Source: a virus. From it: a DNA stretch of 25,798 bases. Below are positions 150 through 22,757 of the stretch, in pieces. The position numbers were made by a program, and so were the translations under genes. A model generated the notes under the pieces. The model was not told the origin of the DNA, did no database searches, and saw only the letters and a program-made list of their open reading frames with translations. The stretch is from the IMG/VR virus record IMGVR_UViG_3300002821_000230, one strand, 5' to 3'. Position 1 is the first letter of the stretch. Every line of letters begins with the position of its first letter.

Positions 150-1897
150 TGAGGCGCCCCGCCCTCGCCCTCCTCCTCGGCTGCCTCCTGCTCGTCGCGG
201 GAGTCTCGGCGCTCGACGGCTACGAATATTACCAGACGATCGAGTACGCCGCCTGCGACCAGGAAGTCTACCAGCAGGACATCGTGATCCACCGCACCAC
301 CGGCACCGCCTACAACGAGACCGCCGGCGGGCTGGAGACCTGGCATATCTATGTCGGGGACCACTGCCGGGAGGATTACGGCGATGTCCGGTTCACCGAC
401 AGCACCGGGGCAGAGCTCGCGTATTATCTCTGGCCGGACTGTACAAGCAGCAGCGCCCGGTTCTGTGTGCGGTTAGAGGGGGCGGATGCGGCCGGGTCGC
501 TGTTCATCTGGTATGGGAACCCGACGGCAACGACGACGAGCGACGGGGATGCGGCGTATCTGTTTTTTGATACATTTGATGGAGATGCTTTAAACTCAAA
601 TAAATGGACAGATTCAGGAAATTCCGGGGAGGTTACAGTTACTAATGGGGAGGCTGTACTGCGTGCGGCTGCCGCCAGTGCAACTTATTACAATCGTTAT
701 ATAACGTCTAAGTCCTCGTTTAGTGGACTCGGAAACATCTCCGTTGAGATCAAAGCCCGGGTTAATCTCAATGGGGCCAATAGGTATGGATCAAGTGTCG
801 CTGCTGGTCGTTCGGATAGATCTTACTACGCGAACGGGGTCTACGGGGCATCTCATAGATTTTCGTATTCAAATACTAAATACTGGTTTGCAGACGGTAC
901 ATCCCTTGCCTCCTCGGTGACCGCGACAAACAACGTAGTATATCGATTTGATATTTACCAGTCCGGGACTCGAGCAGATTATTACGCAGACGGCGTCCGG
1001 GCGTATCAGGGCGAGACCATTACTTTTAGTTCGTTTCCCTATATCGAGCTGTACATCTCAACCTGGGACGCAGGAAACAATCCGAAACTCCACATCGACT
1101 ACGCCCTCGTCCGCGCCTACAGCGCCACCCCGCCCGCTGCCACCGATTTCTCTGGCGAACAGGAAACCCAGGGCCCGCCCATCGTCGGCTTCACCGCAAC
1201 TCCCACCGTCGGCCTTGCCCCGCTAACCGTCCAGTTCAACGACACGTCGCTCCGCAGCCCGACCTCGTGGACCTGGGACTTTGGCGACGGCAGCACTTCA
1301 ACCGACCAGAACCCGGAACACACATACACCGCAGCAGGCACATATTCCGTCAACCTCACCGTCACCAACGAGTACGGCACCGAGTATAAACTAAAACCAG
1401 ACTACATCACCGTCTACAGCCCCGTTACGGCACAGTTCATGGCCGACGTGACTTATGGAGCCCTCCCGCTAACCGTCCAGTTCACTGACGCCTCATCAGG
1501 CAGCCCGACCTCGTGGACCTGGGACTTTGGCGACGGCAACACTTCAACCGACCAGAACCCGGAACACACATACACCTCCACAGGCACATATACCGTAAAA
1601 CTCATCGCGAGCCATCCATATGACTCCGACGAAGAGACAAAAGTCAACTATATCACCGTCGTGACGCTTCAGCCGTTCCCAGGCTGCAGCAGCAACCCGA
1701 CAGACCCAGACTCAGACGGCCTGTATGAAGACATCAACGGCAACGGCCGGTGGGATTTCCAGGATCTCGTCCTGTTTTTCCAGCATCTCACGTGGTGCAA
1801 CGCGAACCAGCCGATCACCCTGTTTGACTGGAACAGCAACTTTAGATGTGATTTTGATGACGTTCACAAACTGTGGCTGGATGGGGGGATGATATGA
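149..1897 (+). CDS. Secreted adhesin: signal peptide, DUF2341-like domain, lectin-like variable domain, 2x PKD, C-terminal dockerin
   Basis: Start corrected to ATG149 (TGATG overlap, MRRPALALLL signal peptide); DYGDVRFTD..LAYY..WYGNP..SDG..FFDTF; two PKD repeats (LTVQFxD..SPTSWTWDFGDG..NPEHTY..GTYxVxL); EF-hand-like dockerin DPDSDGLYEDINGNGRWDFQD...DWNSNFRCDFDD (about 1697-1885). Confidence 0.88.
   Translation: MRRPALALLLGCLLLVAGVSALDGYEYYQTIEYAACDQEVYQQDIVIHRTTGTAYNETAGGLETWHIYVGDHCREDYGDVRFTDSTGAELAYYLWPDCTSSSARFCVRLEGADAAGSLFIWYGNPTATTTSDGDAAYLFFDTFDGDALNSNKWTDSGNSGEVTVTNGEAVLRAAAASATYYNRYITSKSSFSGLGNISVEIKARVNLNGANRYGSSVAAGRSDRSYYANGVYGASHRFSYSNTKYWFADGTSLASSVTATNNVVYRFDIYQSGTRADYYADGVRAYQGETITFSSFPYIELYISTWDAGNNPKLHIDYALVRAYSATPPAATDFSGEQETQGPPIVGFTATPTVGLAPLTVQFNDTSLRSPTSWTWDFGDGSTSTDQNPEHTYTAAGTYSVNLTVTNEYGTEYKLKPDYITVYSPVTAQFMADVTYGALPLTVQFTDASSGSPTSWTWDFGDGNTSTDQNPEHTYTSTGTYTVKLIASHPYDSDEETKVNYITVVTLQPFPGCSSNPTDPDSDGLYEDINGNGRWDFQDLVLFFQHLTWCNANQPITLFDWNSNFRCDFDDVHKLWLDGGMI
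1255..1576 (+). repeat. 76-bp direct repeat pair (1255-1330 and 1501-1576) in the PKD domains
   Basis: 75/76 identical by eye; single G/A difference at 1293/1539; offset 246 nt (82 codons). Confidence 0.9.
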
Positions 1898-2715
1898 GAC
1901 GGCAGGCTCTCGTCCTCGTCGCCCTCCTCCTCCTTGTAGGGATCGCCGCTGCGGACACTCTCACGATCCCGGACGCGGCCCCGTACCAGAACCAGCAGGT
2001 GACCGTTCCCGTAGCACTCACGGCAGCAAACGGGTTGAGTGGTTACAACATCACGTTTTCGGTAGATAACTCGTCCGTGGCACGGATTGATAGCGTAACC
2101 TTCCCGGCCTGGGTCACCCTACACTCGGCCTCGACGACACCGGGCACGACCGTCACCACTGTGGGCGCGGACCTCGGCAACGCCGTCACCGCCCCGGCGA
2201 GCACGACGATCGTCTCCCTGGTGGTGCAGGGTCTCGCGCTCGGCTCGGCAAACCTGACCGCGACCGTCAACCAGATTGATGACGATGCCGGGGGCTCCGT
2301 CACCCCGACGATCAGCTCCGGCACGATCACCGTATCGAGCTCTATCCGGCCCCGGGCCTCCGCGACCATCCCCACGCTCTCAACCGACCTCAAAGACGAC
2401 CTGATCAACTCGCTTGGCGGCGAGACCATCCCGGAGCCTGGCAACGATACAATCAACTGGACGGGACTGATCTCAACCATTGGCGGTGCCTACACATCCG
2501 CGTTAGGTCCGCTTGCGTATACCCTGATCTTCTCGATCCCGTTCCTGATGATGTGGATCACTCAACGGGACATGACATTACCCGGTCTTGTCGGGGCATT
2601 GTTAGGGCTGTTTATAATCGTGCGGTTACCTGCCGAGTTTCATCTGGTCGCCGTGACATTCATCGCGATCAGTATTGTGGCAGTGGTATATTCGCTGGTA
2701 AAGGAGAGGGTGTAA
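1894..2715 (+). CDS. Membrane-anchored cohesin-domain protein (signal peptide, cohesin, C-terminal approx. 3 TM segments)
   Basis: ATG1894 overlaps upstream TGA; MRRQALVLVALLLLVGIAAA signal; archaeal cohesin pattern VTVPV..GLSGYNIT..VARIDSVTFPAW..ADL..IDDDAG..GTITV (about 1954-2334); hydrophobic C-terminus. Confidence 0.8.
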   Translation: MRRQALVLVALLLLVGIAAADTLTIPDAAPYQNQQVTVPVALTAANGLSGYNITFSVDNSSVARIDSVTFPAWVTLHSASTTPGTTVTTVGADLGNAVTAPASTTIVSLVVQGLALGSANLTATVNQIDDDAGGSVTPTISSGTITVSSSIRPRASATIPTLSTDLKDDLINSLGGETIPEPGNDTINWTGLISTIGGAYTSALGPLAYTLIFSIPFLMMWITQRDMTLPGLVGALLGLFIIVRLPAEFHLVAVTFIAISIVAVVYSLVKERV

Positions 2716-2718
2716 ACA

Positions 2719-2874
2719 ATGGATAAAGGCCGATGCCGGATAGTTATATACAACGAGTGGAACCGAAAAGAGTATAACACCGGGCTGAAACAGATTGAAG
2801 ACGCCATAACCGAAATGAACGACTATATCGAGACCAAATACTTTGGTCGGAGGTTCAGTGATGATCACCGTTGA
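2719..2874 (+). CDS. Small hypothetical protein (51 aa)
   Basis: MDKGRCRIVIYNEWNRKEYNTGLKQIEDAITEMNDYIETKYFGRRFSDDHR; GAGAGGG upstream; fills the gap between two genes. Confidence 0.45.
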   Translation: MDKGRCRIVIYNEWNRKEYNTGLKQIEDAITEMNDYIETKYFGRRFSDDHR

Positions 2875-3262
2875 GATCTATATCTTCCTTGCTGCCGTGG
2901 TCGCGGCCGCGTTCGTCTATATATTCCTCGATCTTGACAACCGGCTGTATGGCAACCTGTTTGCTGCCGGTTTTGCAGGAATCATGTCAGGGCTCCTGGC
3001 GCTCTGGAGTTTTAACGAGAACACCGTCACCATAACCACTGTGCCGGGAGCTGCCATTGCCGTGCAACACTATCTTAACGATACCCTCGCCAACGTCACC
3101 ACCACATACGCATACCAGACGCATATCGTCCCGATAGTCGATCCGGCACTCGGTTACTTCTGGATGCTGGTTATGGTATTTATGTGGTTCCTGGTCGGGT
3201 ATTTCGTCCTGGAGATCCTGCATGAGAGCCGGATGCCTGATGACGAGGAGGCATACGAATGA
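2861..3262 (+). CDS. Membrane protein, about 3 TM segments, putative virion component
   Basis: ATG2861 with GGAGG RBS; hydrophobic segments; NDT/NVT sequons in the loop. Confidence 0.75.
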   Translation: MITVEIYIFLAAVVAAAFVYIFLDLDNRLYGNLFAAGFAGIMSGLLALWSFNENTVTITTVPGAAIAVQHYLNDTLANVTTTYAYQTHIVPIVDPALGYFWMLVMVFMWFLVGYFVLEILHESRMPDDEEAYE

Positions 3263-3522
3263 GCAGGGGTCGTCGTGTCCCAAAAGCGATCATAATGATC
3301 CTGCCACTCATGTTTATCCTGGCACTGGTGATGCTCCTCCCCGCGATCGCGGGCAGTGCCGAGGCGGAGCACAACATCACGGCGCTTGAGCACAGCGAGG
3401 GTGCTGCGGGAGCTATGAACCTCCTCCTCGTCGGAGACATGATCCTGCCGGTTCTTGCGCTCCTCGTCGGTCTTGCGATCCTGCTGGTCGGTGTTGGATT
3501 CTTCCGCCGTGGAAACTACTGA
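3259..3522 (+). CDS. Two-helix hairpin membrane protein, candidate minor capsid protein
   Basis: 87 aa: basic N-terminus, hydrophobic helix, polar linker with NIT sequon, second hydrophobic helix, basic C-terminus. Confidence 0.6.
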   Translation: MSRGRRVPKAIIMILPLMFILALVMLLPAIAGSAEAEHNITALEHSEGAAGAMNLLLVGDMILPVLALLVGLAILLVGVGFFRRGNY

Positions 3523-3545: not shown

Positions 3546-3576
3546 CACGAATAAACCTCATACCGAGGTGAAAGAA

Positions 3577-3858
3577 TTGGCAAGACGCAGAGAAGTCAAC
3601 CCGATGAACCTGATCATCGCAATCGCGATCGGTATCCTGACCCTGATCGCGGTATTCTCGGTGATCCCGGTGGTCGGTGGATCGATCGACAACGCAATGC
3701 CCGATGTTGGTGACACCTCAGAGTGGAACACCACAAACAACCCGGATCTCCCCAGCGGTGCCAGCATGTGGACGCAGCTCGGGCCGCTGCTTGTGCTCGC
3801 AGTCCTCGCGATGGTGATCGGCCTGGTGATCATGTACTTCCGGAACGCCGCAGGATAA
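3577..3858 (+). CDS. Putative major capsid protein of spindle-shaped virus type (SSV1 VP1 / His1 MCP-like architecture)
   Basis: Likely TTG start 6 nt after GAGGTG (track start GTG3568); NLIIAIAIGILTLIAVFSVIPVVGG helix, linker with NTT sequon, LGPLLVLAVLAMVIGLVIMYF helix; own strong promoter. Confidence 0.7.
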   Translation: MARRREVNPMNLIIAIAIGILTLIAVFSVIPVVGGSIDNAMPDVGDTSEWNTTNNPDLPSGASMWTQLGPLLVLAVLAMVIGLVIMYFRNAAG

Positions 3859-19680: not shown

Positions 19681-19845
19681 ATGAAAATCAACGTGGCACT
19701 GAACGAGAAGGACGCGATCGTGTTCGACCGCGTGAAGAAGAAGATCGGCATCCAGACGAATGCCGAGACGATGCGATACCTGATCACCAACTATGCACAG
19801 TCTGAGGGACTGGTGTCTCCTGATGAGGTGGCATCCGATGTGTAA
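19681..19845 (+). CDS. Small RHH-like protein (54 aa), absent from the ORF track
   Basis: MKINVALNEKDAIVFDRVKKKIGIQTNAETMRYLITNYAQ... beta-alpha-alpha pattern. Confidence 0.7.
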   Translation: MKINVALNEKDAIVFDRVKKKIGIQTNAETMRYLITNYAQSEGLVSPDEVASDV

Positions 19846-20206
19846 GGACTACCCCGACGGATGCGGCCAGACCTGCGGCTTCTCCGGTTTCGGTGAGTCG
19901 TGGTACCGGCCGGGAGTGGCCGCAGAACGGCAGAACGCCCCCTGCATGTTGCTTGACAGCCTCAAATCCTATACAATGCAGTATGGGAAGACGATGGTTG
20001 CATACGAGTGCGGCCAGGTCTGGGTGCTCCCATACCCTGTTAATGGCGGGTGGATCATCATGACATCATCAGACGGATCGGGTGTCGTGGATAGCGCGAT
20101 CTACCTGGAGGAGGACCGGGGATACCTCCTGTCCCTTGCCGTGGCCGAGGGGGCCATCGAGTATTACAGGTCGCAATCCTGCGCGAGAAATTGCGGGGTA
20201 TTCTGA
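19838..20206 (+). CDS. Hypothetical Cys-containing protein
   Basis: ATG19838 after GAGGTG; overlaps the upstream stop. Confidence 0.65.
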   Translation: MCKDYPDGCGQTCGFSGFGESWYRPGVAAERQNAPCMLLDSLKSYTMQYGKTMVAYECGQVWVLPYPVNGGWIIMTSSDGSGVVDSAIYLEEDRGYLLSLAVAEGAIEYYRSQSCARNCGVF

Positions 20207-20330: not shown

Positions 20331-22757
20331 ATGGGTTTACTTGACGCCATAACAGGCTGGGCCAAAAGTGCCGGGCAGCAGGCGTACCAGAACGTGATCC
20401 GGTCAGGGCAGCGGGGGTACGAGAGTTCCAGACAGGCACACGGTGGTCGATCCCCCACATGGCCGATCGTTACCCAACAGACCCGACAGGCACAACAGGC
20501 CCGGTCTCGCGTGAGTGGTGGCACGACCGGCGGTCGCGAGGTCACCGGGGTAAAAGGGGTCGAGTCGGGTGTATCAAACCCCACAGAGTCGATGTATCTC
20601 TACCCAATCTACACAGCGGCAAAGTCTCTTGCCGAATCTTACAAGAAGAATGTCACAGACAAGTTCTCGGGGTATGTAGAACCTCGACTCAAGGGTCATG
20701 GTGCCTGGGAAACCGTCGGCCAGGCGGCCACCGGGCTCGTCTCATCTCCAGGACTTACAGTCGAGTTCCTCGGCATGATCCCGGCCGGCGCAGAACGGCT
20801 GGCGCGGGAAACCGTCCGGGCCCCCAGCACCCTCCCACAAATGGCAGCATCCGGGCTCGCTTATCAGGCACACGGGATTGCTTCCGGGCTCAAAGAGAAC
20901 CCCGGCCGGACCGCGGGCGAACTCGTCGGGATGGGTCTGGTTACTCACGGGATCACCCGCGGTGCCACCAGGAGCCCGGTCCGTCCCGCCGTGGATGTAG
21001 CAAGGTTCCCGCTTGAATCCCACATCTCGTTCGGCATCAAGACCGCCCCCTCCCGCGGCAAGGTGGTCGGGTTCCAGCCGGTGGTCGGCATCAGCAAAAC
21101 CCCAAAAGGTACCCGCCCAACAGTCGGCACCCCCAGTGTCCGGATTGAGGCTGCACTCGGCGGTGAACGGTTCACGCCGGCAACCCCGCTGGAGACCCGG
21201 ATTGTCCAGAAAGCCCTCGGCGGCCAGGAAGCGGCCAGGATCGGCTATGCGAGGAACGTCCGGAAAGTCACACAGTCGTCCGGGCTCACCCTGAAACAGG
21301 CGACCCCGGTAATCCAGGAGGTCATCACCCAGCACAACATCCCCAACCCCAAGGCGGTATCAAAAGCGATCGCCACCGGGCTCCGGTCCGAGGGCGCACA
21401 ACTCTATGGCAGTGTTGTCCAGCGAGGTATCGGGCAGGAGGCCGGGAAGCCCGGCCTGTCCCGTGTCCCGCGCGACTTCGATATTCAGGTCGCCAACGCC
21501 CAGGCGTTCCAGAGGAAGATCATCAACGACATCAACCGGGCAGCCGGCAGGCAGGTCGTCGCGCCGGAAGGCCGTGGGGGGGTCGTCGTCCGGGAGACCG
21601 GCGCCAAACTTTTCGACATCCACGACCTTGAAACCACTCTCTCTGAACGGCAGTTCACCCCGAAAACTCCATCAGAGTATATCGCGTTCGGGATCAAAGG
21701 AGAGAAACTTGTCCCGACACGAGAAGGCATCCCGGCGATCACTCTCTCGGAGCAGGCGACCCGTAAACTCGAGGGTTCAATGCAGCTCCGGCCGGCCGTG
21801 GAAACCCTCGATGTTCCAGGCTCAACCCTGACACTCAAGGGGCAACTCCTCCCCAAAAGCTCCGGCAGGGTCAAGGACATCTCTGATACCTATTTCGCGG
21901 AAAAACTGGCCATCGACGTGATGAAAGGCAGCAAAAACCCGGTGACGGTTTCCAGGGCAATTGTTGGCGAACAATACCTGAACATGTACCTCGAAACCTG
22001 GGGCGAGGAGGTTGCCGCATCGGTCAGGGCACAGTATGCAAAAGAACTTGCCGGAGGCACACTGTCCGTGAAACTGGCAGATTTCTCCCAACCCGCGGTA
22101 AAGTCACCAGCGGTCCCAGCGGCCAGCGATTTCTACACCGGTGCGGTTGCAATTCAGTCACCATATTATGCTGCGGCATCACCCTCCAGGCCCGGGACCC
22201 CCGCAAGGAGCCCGACCTCGTCATCGATGTATTCCGCAGCATCGGAGATCGCGCGGGGCAGCGGCGTCGGCAGCGGGTCTCTGCTACCATCTCCGTCCCG
22301 GTCGCCGCCTCAGTATAGCCCGCCGGCATACACTCCGCCCTCCTTGTCGTCGGTATACACCACACCTTACTCACCACCTTACTCACCACCTTACTCACCA
22401 CCTTACTCACCACCTTACTCACCACCTTACTCACCACCTTACTCACCACCTTACTCACCACCTTACTCACCACCTTACTCACCACCCTACTCACCACCTT
22501 ACTCACCTCCCTACTCACCTCCCTACTCACCTCCCTACTCACCTCCCTACTCGCCGCCGGTATACACTCCCCCATACATCCCCCAGCAGAAGAGGATCAG
22601 GCCCAAAGACGACCGCAAACTCAGAGCCATTCGTCCCGACCTTTCCCTAACCGGTTTTGACTGGACGGTGACAAACCCGGTGCCGACATGGGAATCTGTC
22701 TTTGGCACCACCAAAACACCGAACCTCACCATAACCCTGTCGGAGTTCAAATTATGA
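20331..22757 (+). CDS. Large multidomain protein: Gly/Ala-rich N-terminus, AbiEii/Pol-beta-like nucleotidyltransferase domain, Ser/Pro-rich region with (YSPP)16
   Basis: ATG20331 after GAGGCGG (track start GTG20325); LYGS (21402) ... RVPRDFD (D at 21474 and 21480) ... KLFDIH ... ITLSEQATRKL ... RVKDISD (21867-21887). Confidence 0.75.
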   Translation: MGLLDAITGWAKSAGQQAYQNVIRSGQRGYESSRQAHGGRSPTWPIVTQQTRQAQQARSRVSGGTTGGREVTGVKGVESGVSNPTESMYLYPIYTAAKSLAESYKKNVTDKFSGYVEPRLKGHGAWETVGQAATGLVSSPGLTVEFLGMIPAGAERLARETVRAPSTLPQMAASGLAYQAHGIASGLKENPGRTAGELVGMGLVTHGITRGATRSPVRPAVDVARFPLESHISFGIKTAPSRGKVVGFQPVVGISKTPKGTRPTVGTPSVRIEAALGGERFTPATPLETRIVQKALGGQEAARIGYARNVRKVTQSSGLTLKQATPVIQEVITQHNIPNPKAVSKAIATGLRSEGAQLYGSVVQRGIGQEAGKPGLSRVPRDFDIQVANAQAFQRKIINDINRAAGRQVVAPEGRGGVVVRETGAKLFDIHDLETTLSERQFTPKTPSEYIAFGIKGEKLVPTREGIPAITLSEQATRKLEGSMQLRPAVETLDVPGSTLTLKGQLLPKSSGRVKDISDTYFAEKLAIDVMKGSKNPVTVSRAIVGEQYLNMYLETWGEEVAASVRAQYAKELAGGTLSVKLADFSQPAVKSPAVPAASDFYTGAVAIQSPYYAAASPSRPGTPARSPTSSSMYSAASEIARGSGVGSGSLLPSPSRSPPQYSPPAYTPPSLSSVYTTPYSPPYSPPYSPPYSPPYSPPYSPPYSPPYSPPYSPPYSPPYSPPYSPPYSPPYSPPYSPPYSPPVYTPPYIPQQKRIRPKDDRKLRAIRPDLSLTGFDWTVTNPVPTWESVFGTTKTPNLTITLSEFKL
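22365..22556 (+). repeat. 12-bp tandem repeat CCTTACTCACCA x16 encoding PYSP
   Basis: First 10 units identical (22365-22484); last 6 carry only synonymous changes. Confidence 0.95.

Follow-up and report, generated by a model that had tools for sequence, protein, structure and literature searches.

Pro-rich spacers and short terminal interaction peptides are known from several unrelated systems. The (EP)n(KP)n spacer of TonB reportedly links the body of that protein to a terminal interaction module, and layouts consisting of an enzyme, a linker and a C-terminal peptide are found with the cargo-loading peptides of encapsulins and in the herpesvirus large tegument protein, whose capsid-binding end follows Pro-rich repeats. 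Among archaeal elements, the closest described repeats are the amino acid tandem repeats (aaTRs) of the Methanoperedens Borgs, which are in-frame and near-perfect, carry synonymous variants, are rich in Pro, Thr and Ser, generate disorder, are specific to lineages and turn over fast, with homologous Borg proteins carrying aaTRs of similar composition (PMC9879509). A repeat of comparable character is found in the gene at positions 20331-22757 (plus strand) of the IMG/VR virus record IMGVR_UViG_3300002821_000230, a stretch of 25,798 nucleotides that was analysed at its full length and is hereafter referred to as the window. The gene encodes a large protein in which a predicted nucleotidyltransferase (NTase) domain is followed by a Pro-rich tail with sixteen YSPP tetrads, to which an earlier note made from the sequence alone had drawn attention. 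In the explanation preferred here, which is held with moderate confidence, the tail is a disordered tether occurring family-wide and constrained in length, and the sixteen-unit array is its recently expanded part.

The open reading frame (ORF) is open from GTG 20325 (810 amino acids, aa), and the start MGLLDAITGW at ATG 20331 is the one used by the relatives P0104 and P0107 and by the ESM Atlas record. The parts of the gene considered below are as follows.

20331-22757, plus strand: whole gene, 808 aa from ATG 20331.
20577-20969, plus strand: N-terminal helical Gly-rich module (aa 85-215), with helices at a predicted local distance difference test score (pLDDT) of 80-94 in the AlphaFold2 (AF2) model.
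21300-22064, plus strand: AbiEii/MenT-like NTase-fold domain (aa 326-580), predicted from motif conservation and fold matches.
22065-22367, plus strand: Ser/Pro/Ala-rich segment upstream of the array, predicted disordered (AF2 pLDDT 33-40).
22308-22367, plus strand: degenerate 5' units PQYS PPAY TPPS LSSV YTTP, read from the sequence.
22368-22559, plus strand: (YSPP)x16 tandem array, each unit being 12 nt long (aa 682-745 if counted from the GTG).
22560-22583, plus strand: degenerate 3' units VYTP PYIP, likewise read from the sequence.
22584-22661, plus strand: basic patch QQKRIRPKDDRKLRAIRPDLSLTGFD, with 8 Lys or Arg (K/R) among the 30 residues that precede the C-terminal motif.
22662-22706, plus strand: conserved C-terminal motif WTVTNPVPTWESVFG, recognised by translation and family comparison.

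The AF2 model of the whole protein was built on 49 aligned sequences. Its confidence is high over about aa 90-575 (356 residues reach a pLDDT of at least 90) and drops to a pLDDT of 33-54 over aa 580-810. A predicted-disordered stretch of ~180 residues between the NTase and the C-terminal motif houses the array. The earlier note had placed the tail directly after an NTase; the domain is present, but the array begins ~100 residues downstream of it, the intervening residues being disordered as well. The N-terminus, MGLLDAITGWAKSAGQQ, is not hydrophobic and the protein carries no signal peptide.

The translation at 22368-22559 contains 16 consecutive YSPP units without a break, and Tandem Repeats Finder reports a period of 12, 15.8 copies, 97% matches and a score of 317 for the array, in agreement with the 16 tetrads and variant flanks described earlier. 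The unit TACTCACCACCT, which is C-rich (A3 C6 T3 G0), has 11 copies in the window with at most one mismatch, all of them within the array, while shuffling yields an expectation of 0.06 and none of 100 shuffles reaches 11. The 5' block comprises units 1-11 of A-type: units 1-9 and 11 are all identical (TAC TCA CCA CCT), and unit 10 ends in CCC through a single synonymous change. The 3' block comprises the four B-type units 12-15 (TAC TCA CCT CCC) and the divergent unit 16 (TAC TCG CCG CCG). All five distinct substitutions among the units, which lie in the 3' part, are third-position and synonymous; since 10 of the 36 single changes possible in the unit are synonymous, the probability of five out of five is ~0.002. 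The YSPP reading frame is fixed because conserved sequence lies on both sides of it, the NTase upstream and the C-terminal motif downstream. Two other frames, one giving LTHH on +1 and one giving VVSK on the reverse strand, were rejected as by-products of the repeat, the YSPP frame being the one that runs into conserved sequence. An iteron or binding-site array acting at the level of DNA was also rejected, as the unit is confined to the array, its variants are synonymous and the units of relatives differ.

The history of the array is indicated by the virus carrying P0104 (contig L006), whose flanking genes are 93-95% identical to those of the window. Its tail aligns with the 3' B-type units of the window only, and the 5' block of identical units is therefore new and lineage-specific. 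Unit-by-unit comparison thus bears out the earlier statement that the nucleotide variants are synonymous and clustered at the 3' end, and the proposed expansion from the 5' side accords with the 5' block being the young part.

In its 12-nt unit, 97% matches, synonymous variants, pLDDT below 50 and richness in Pro and Ser, the array resembles the aaTRs of Borgs. It departs from them in that Borg units are A-enriched whereas the unit here is C-rich, in that Borgs are giant linear elements whereas the window is a 25.8-kb virus-like circle, and in that the protein is without a signal peptide and the repeat lies in a linker that pre-existed across the protein family. The likeness to the RNA polymerase II C-terminal domain (CTD) and to plant extensins suggested in the earlier note holds for composition and goes no further. 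The CTD, (YSPTSPS)n, is rich in Tyr, Ser and Pro and, like the array, likely prone to the polyproline-II (PPII) conformation, but it is a heptad on a polymerase and the array is a tetrad on an NTase-bearing protein; compared with extensins (SPPPP, YxY), the array has SPP only and no SPPPP blocks, lacks YxY and belongs to a protein that has no signal peptide. Enzymes that would act on such repeats, whether kinases or prolyl hydroxylases, are not known from archaea.

A full-library HMMER search with aa 1-640 identified 103 cluster representatives, 50 of them at E<=1e-30, and a second search gave the closer relatives P0104 (75% identity), P0105 (69%) and P0106. The ~100 cluster representatives derive from Methanomicrobiales, Halobacteriales, Thermoplasmatales and other archaeal contigs. 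Tails were surveyed in 94 sequences in which the last recognised module is followed by at least 100 aa, including the window and three locus ORFs that duplicate representatives, and a segment with at least 30% Pro was taken as a Pro-rich tail. Such tails occur in 69 of the 94 sequences and are the rule in this family, so that the tail is not the oddity for an archaeal virus that it had first appeared to be. Homologues lacking any Tyr-rich tail, which the earlier note had named as counting against its proposal, were not the pattern found: homologues carry Pro-rich, often Tyr-rich tails.

The tails are alike in composition and not in sequence, and they do not align with one another (for example SPSLPRSPGSPS..., YKPKVYKPYSYKPYPYKPY..., PPSYPPSRPPSY..., YPPEKYPPGKYPP... 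and PPSTPPGSPPSTPP...). In relatives for which DNA is available, tandem repeats with units of their own lie at this place. The P0104 virus has (TCT TCA CCT CCC TAC TCA CCG CCG)x3, a 24-nt unit encoding SSPPYSPPx3 whose copies are 96-100% identical and which is found in three assemblies; the P0105 element has a 39-nt unit x2.9; a 35%-identical homologue (L013) has (HSPP)x8 followed by YSPP; and another (L016) has (PS)n.

The distance from NTase motif IV (see below) to the C-terminal motif varies much less. In the 17 sequences that have both landmarks its median is 251 aa (interquartile range 234-263), and 16 of the 17 fall within 196-278, with the window at 263 and its closest relative P0104 at 206. 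Length is conserved where sequence varies, and this is the behaviour expected of a spacer or tether; the tail also lies between two conserved modules, is non-globular and has its length rather than its sequence conserved. The downstream module has the family consensus [WY]x[IV]xNP[VIL][PA]x[LIF]Ex[VM][FLM]G and was found in 28 family sequences (the window's own counted), 18-90 residues from the C-terminus and with a K/R patch upstream in each; it is present also in a subfamily that has no NTase. The patch and the motif together are probably a docking peptide. A sorting signal of the archaeosortase or PGF-CTERM type was considered and rejected, there being no C-terminal hydrophobic helix.

Several observations weigh against the tail being simply a tether. 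A tail passing the Pro threshold is lacking in 25 of the 94 homologues, the strict C-terminal motif is found in about a third of candidates only, the motif docks on nothing in the full-length AF2 model, and the length constraint is based on just 17 sequences. A role beyond spacing is hinted at by the 66 other tails, in which 89 instances of Y-x-P-P compare with an expectation of 37 after shuffling (z 9.3) and 46 of [YFHW][ST]PP with one of 11 (z 11), both counts being inflated by internal repeats within tails.

With TonB-type spacers the tail shares a Pro-rich, non-globular character, a position between two functional parts and loose sequence conservation, its length being constrained here; the units differ (EP/KP as opposed to YSPP), as do the cellular context and the partners. 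The likeness to encapsulin cargo and the herpesvirus tegument protein lies in a short, conserved motif at the C-terminus that a long disordered linker joins to an enzyme domain; it is a lead only, and there is no homology.

According to the tether explanation, replication slippage would have brought about a recent, lineage-specific expansion of a YSPP seed within a disordered linker that is rich in Pro, Ser and Tyr and is probably extended and PPII-like. This linker would join a folded body (N-terminal helical module, small beta domain and AbiEii-like NTase) to the short C-terminal element, in which the K/R patch and W-x-V-x-N-P-V-P-x-x-E-x-V-F-G may act as a docking or anchoring peptide. Selection would bear on the composition and overall length of the linker and not on its sequence, and for this reason repeat units would be born, amplified and replaced fast in each lineage. 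As a spacer or tether, the linker would allow a separation of up to tens of nanometres between the body and the C-terminal peptide. A PPII helix extends by ~3.1 A per residue, so that 64 residues span ~20 nm if fully PPII. The protein itself would be virion-associated. Of the three options offered in the earlier note, the spacer is thus the one favoured, but its supposed rigidity finds no support. The repeat as such is best read as the product of slippage expansion within a disordered linker, which is an evolutionary process of an ordinary kind.

The domain upstream of the linker was compared with the AbiEii/DUF1814 enzymes, in which motifs I and II read hG[G/S]x(9-15)DhD and an Arg precedes the first Asp by four residues, motif III consists of a Lys conserved amid hydrophobic residues, and motif IV reads +DxxD (PMC3985639). 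All four are present. Motifs I and II correspond to LYGS(362-363)...R380-VPR-D384-F-D386, in which 42-44 of 44-45 aligned members retain the G, S, R, D and D, and the spacing between the two motifs is 20 residues here as opposed to 15 in AbiEii. Motif III corresponds to R480-K481-L482 (kept in 41-43 of 47 members) and motif IV to K517-D518-I-S-D521 (kept in 44-45 of 46-47). The key residues are thus G362 S363, R380, D384, D386, D431, R480 K481 and K517 D518 D521, and the four conserved stretches of the family have the consensus LYGS..Q......G..GL.R.PRD.DV.V, KLFDIH, TLSEQ..RKL.G and GR.KDI.D.Y..E. The catalytic columns are at least 90% conserved over 44-47 aligned members and invariant among the 12 closer members (alignment A2). 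In a VIA search with aa 327-580, the best 12 matches are all NTases, with moderate Z values; they include the following.

Megavirus poly(A) synthase: Z 8.0, root mean square deviation (rmsd) 4.6, 171 residues aligned.
JHP933: Z 6.8, 187 of 227 aligned.
TM1012: Z 6.4.
LnuA: Z 6.2.
MenT3/TglT: Z 6.0, 172 aligned.
MenT1: Z 5.9, 148 of 194 aligned.

In the ESM Atlas, a phage cluster of poly(A)-polymerase domains is matched with a TM-score of 0.77 (151 residues, rmsd 2.3), and AbiEii clusters are matched with one of 0.62. PF08843 was matched neither by the whole protein, nor by the domain alone at E<=10, nor by any of 49 family members, and the protein is therefore not filed as a member of PF08843. 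Motif conservation and fold matches bear out the NTase domain named in the earlier note; judged from sequence and model, it is a real NTase, AbiEii/MenT- or poly(A)-polymerase-like, and probably active. Its resemblance would lie with these types rather than with the MntA type referred to in the earlier note, a minimal, HEPN-AMPylating NTase that is a small stand-alone MNT domain accompanied by a HEPN toxin gene; the NTase here is embedded in a large protein. MntA chains are not among the listed VIA matches, although the domain may still be similar to MntA, and no HEPN family turned up in the Pfam scans run on the window ORFs. With the AbiEii/MenT (DUF1814) toxins the domain has all four motifs and the fold in common; it differs in forming part of an 808-aa multidomain virus protein with no recognisable antitoxin neighbour, and the upstream ORF 19793-20203 has no Pfam match.

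The main rival to the tether is a multivalent scaffold, in which aromatic-x-Pro-Pro units would be linear motifs or modification sites (phospho- or glyco-) whose copy number sets avidity, recruiting many copies of a viral or host partner or driving self-association. Such a unit is clearly favoured in the family as far as its sequences go, since Y-x-P-P and [YFHW][ST]PP are the most over-represented patterns in the 66 other tails; the distant homologue L013 amplified HSPP independently, and the median Tyr content of the tails is 6-9% against 3.3% overall. The scaffold is nevertheless considered unlikely. Tyr content, with a median of 7%, is at least 8% in 33 of 69 tails, but it is at most 2% in 20 of the 69, which have SP, PS or TP units instead; the pattern counts are inflated as stated above, and Pfam scans recognised no PPII-binding module in the window. 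The host lineage is not known to have readers of the WW or SH3 type. A reading of the tails as PPxY late domains was rejected, the enrichment of PP-x-Y in the 66 other tails being weak (z 2.6, compared with 9.3 for Y-x-P-P), and the hosts are not known to possess machinery for PPxY late domains. That the array itself is a multivalent element, which either provides a PPII reader with docking sites or exposes a ladder of hydroxyls to modification by the NTase or by an enzyme of the host, is regarded as improbable; if true, archaeal viruses of the spindle-shaped type would use the number of repeats to tune virion assembly, genome delivery or host takeover, and the array would be an archaeal-virus analogue of CTD-like code scaffolds. 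The in-cis acceptor array of the earlier note, in which Tyr (or Ser) hydroxyls of the tail would be nucleotidylylated by the protein's own NTase, is very improbable. An NTase that appears active from its motifs and model does lie within the same polypeptide, and MntA-type NTases are said to oligo-AMPylate a Tyr of HepT. Self-modification by auto-phosphorylation is moreover possible for DUF1814 toxins, according to the available part of the source (PMC11375011). Against this stand the eight members of the NTase-less subfamily (P0061, P0066, P0074, P0082, P0090, P0092, P0100 and P0102), which share with the NTase-bearing proteins the N-terminal module alone (hhalign probability 99.8) and have no GS...DxD or +DxxD strings and no match to an iterated NTase hidden Markov model. 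Where models, hhalign and motif scans thus find no NTase, Pro-rich and often Tyr-rich tails occur in all but P0082 (below the Pro threshold), and the C-terminal motif occurs in 6 of the 8, P0066 being without it and P0100 having a loose variant only. As to the co-occurrence of NTase and Tyr repeats that the earlier note had proposed to check, Tyr-rich tails exist without a detectable NTase, and median tail Tyr is not higher with the NTase (6.1%, n=56) than without it (9.1%, n=11; Mann-Whitney p 0.036). In many members that bear the NTase the tail is free of Tyr, L013 amplified His, and characterised relatives of this NTase type act on tRNA or modify themselves at the active site, so far as the available parts of the sources describe them (PMC7450476, PMC10435456).

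Two further alternatives deny the individual copies a role or a reality. A functionally neutral microsatellite, in which slippage-prone C-rich DNA expanded where in-frame insertions are tolerated, would agree with the fast turnover of units between close relatives, the predicted disorder of the tail and the position of the window linker (263) within the family length range. It is rated as rather unlikely, given that all variants are synonymous, that tail composition and length are conserved family-wide and that copy number is stable across assemblies; it overlaps the tether explanation, in which the region rather than the single copy is selected. That the array or its copy number was created by an assembler is barely credible. 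Tandem repeats are a classic source of assembly error, and the contig of the close relative P0001 (L002, gene 1548-3359, a 67%-identical Methanoregula homologue) ends within the Pro-rich tail, which fits an assembly break at a repeat. Three assemblies nonetheless agree in the 16 units and in the pattern of variants among them, as the JGI contigs L004 (from a 25,813-nt contig) and L005 represent the same virus as the window at 99.97-99.99% identity; these two meet the earlier suggestion that the repeat number be looked up elsewhere. Copy number is constant in the three assemblies of the window virus and likewise in three of the L006-type virus, and the reading frame and the downstream motif are intact. 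The two contigs differ from the window in 7-mer homopolymers read as 6-mers, which account for all 5 differences in L004, and in one base substitution in L005. Such shortening suggests pyrosequencing-type reads, which would be long enough to span the 192 nt of the array. One of the homopolymers lies within the gene.

21576-21582, plus strand: G7 homopolymer, G6 in the JGI contigs, where public gene calls are split into 499 + 325 aa (P0107).

Phase variation at this run was rejected in favour of an assembly artefact, as the differences from the window there are 7-mer homopolymers one base short.

Outside the tail, the N-terminal module is the sole part common to all subfamilies (hhalign of alignment A2 against A3/A5, probability 99.8 for this part only). 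Its consensus is ...VExxGMIPxGxERLxR...AGELVGM..., and its weak fold matches to membrane or coiled-coil helices (MscS, flagellin) suggest that it could be membrane-active. The enzymatic part varies among members. P0058 has an extra insert with a GNAT acetyltransferase domain by Pfam, P0106 has a ~185-aa insert within the NTase with an HxH...SxxD string (JAMM-like by eye only), and the string HELTH occurs in P0108. In its behaviour the family resembles a polyvalent scaffold on which enzymes can be swapped. Within the disordered segment upstream of the array lies a MYSAASEIARG motif (22245-22277, aa ~641-651), which in close relatives reads TYTVASEIARG or SMYAASEIVRG and of which P0106 has three related copies (SSYEVARDMSPSY).

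Neither Pfam nor PHROGs matched the whole protein or its NTase part, and the GNAT domain of P0058 was all that they gave when 49 members of the family, the subfamily lacking the NTase and the long relatives were scanned. PDB sequence searches returned nothing, or low-complexity matches to the tail only. Searches of a phage collection by tblastn and megablast with the window protein, P0010 and P0012 gave no match in that collection, in which archaeal viruses may be poorly covered. The protein is not mentioned in PMC10866085. The protein family, which is uncharacterised and has no Pfam or PHROG model, is a more novel object than the repeat.

The gene is the first of a long co-directional module, and its stop overlaps the next start in ATGA at 22754-22757. 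The product of that next gene, to which it is translationally coupled, has 950 aa, an N-terminus resembling a signal peptide, CarboxypepD_reg domains and hydrophobic segments in its C-terminal part; a DUF2341/PKD protein is encoded downstream of it. This order of NTase-tail gene, CarboxypepD_reg protein and DUF2341 protein recurs on contigs of metagenome-assembled genomes (MAGs) of Thermoplasmatales and Halobacteriales, such as the following.

L019, 6627-16667: NTase-tail protein and ~900-aa CarboxypepD_reg protein, with a DUF2341 protein next.
L017, 6042-12925: NTase-tail protein and ~900-aa CarboxypepD_reg protein.

Judged from these contigs, the NTase-tail/CarboxypepD_reg gene order is a module conserved across distant archaeal hosts. 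Close homologues of the protein are found on Methanoregula and Methanoculleus MAG contigs.

In L005 (7429-7449) the end of the window (25798) joins its start through 21 extra bases, and the element is therefore a ~25.8-kb circle of which the window is essentially complete. It also encodes a tyrosine integrase and a DnaA-like AAA+ protein. No family model for a capsid was matched; a 96-aa ORF at 3568-3858, without a Pfam match, has two hydrophobic helices around a polar loop, as capsid proteins of spindle-shaped viruses do. The second-best viral fold match to the whole model, and the best named one (the top match being unnamed), is A0A514K2U2 in BFVD, a large 1125-aa protein of a Nitrosopumilus spindle-shaped virus annotated as 'IgA FC receptor' (Foldseek E 3.4e-7, probability 1.00); its TM-scores are low (0.14/0.11) because both models are multi-domain, and its annotated name might conceivably stem from a Pro-rich region. 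The element may accordingly be regarded as a candidate spindle-shaped-type virus or provirus of Methanomicrobiales.

The family follows a fixed plan, namely a helical module at the N-terminus, an enzymatic core that can be exchanged and is usually an AbiEii-like NTase, a presumed Pro-rich tether of constrained length and a conserved C-terminal basic/NPVP motif, and its gene heads a conserved module with large surface-protein genes. The tails form a natural series on how linker length and composition are kept up amid sequence turnover. If the C-terminal motif is a docking peptide, the family would offer a tractable route to understanding how enzymes come to be placed in or on the particles of non-tailed archaeal viruses.

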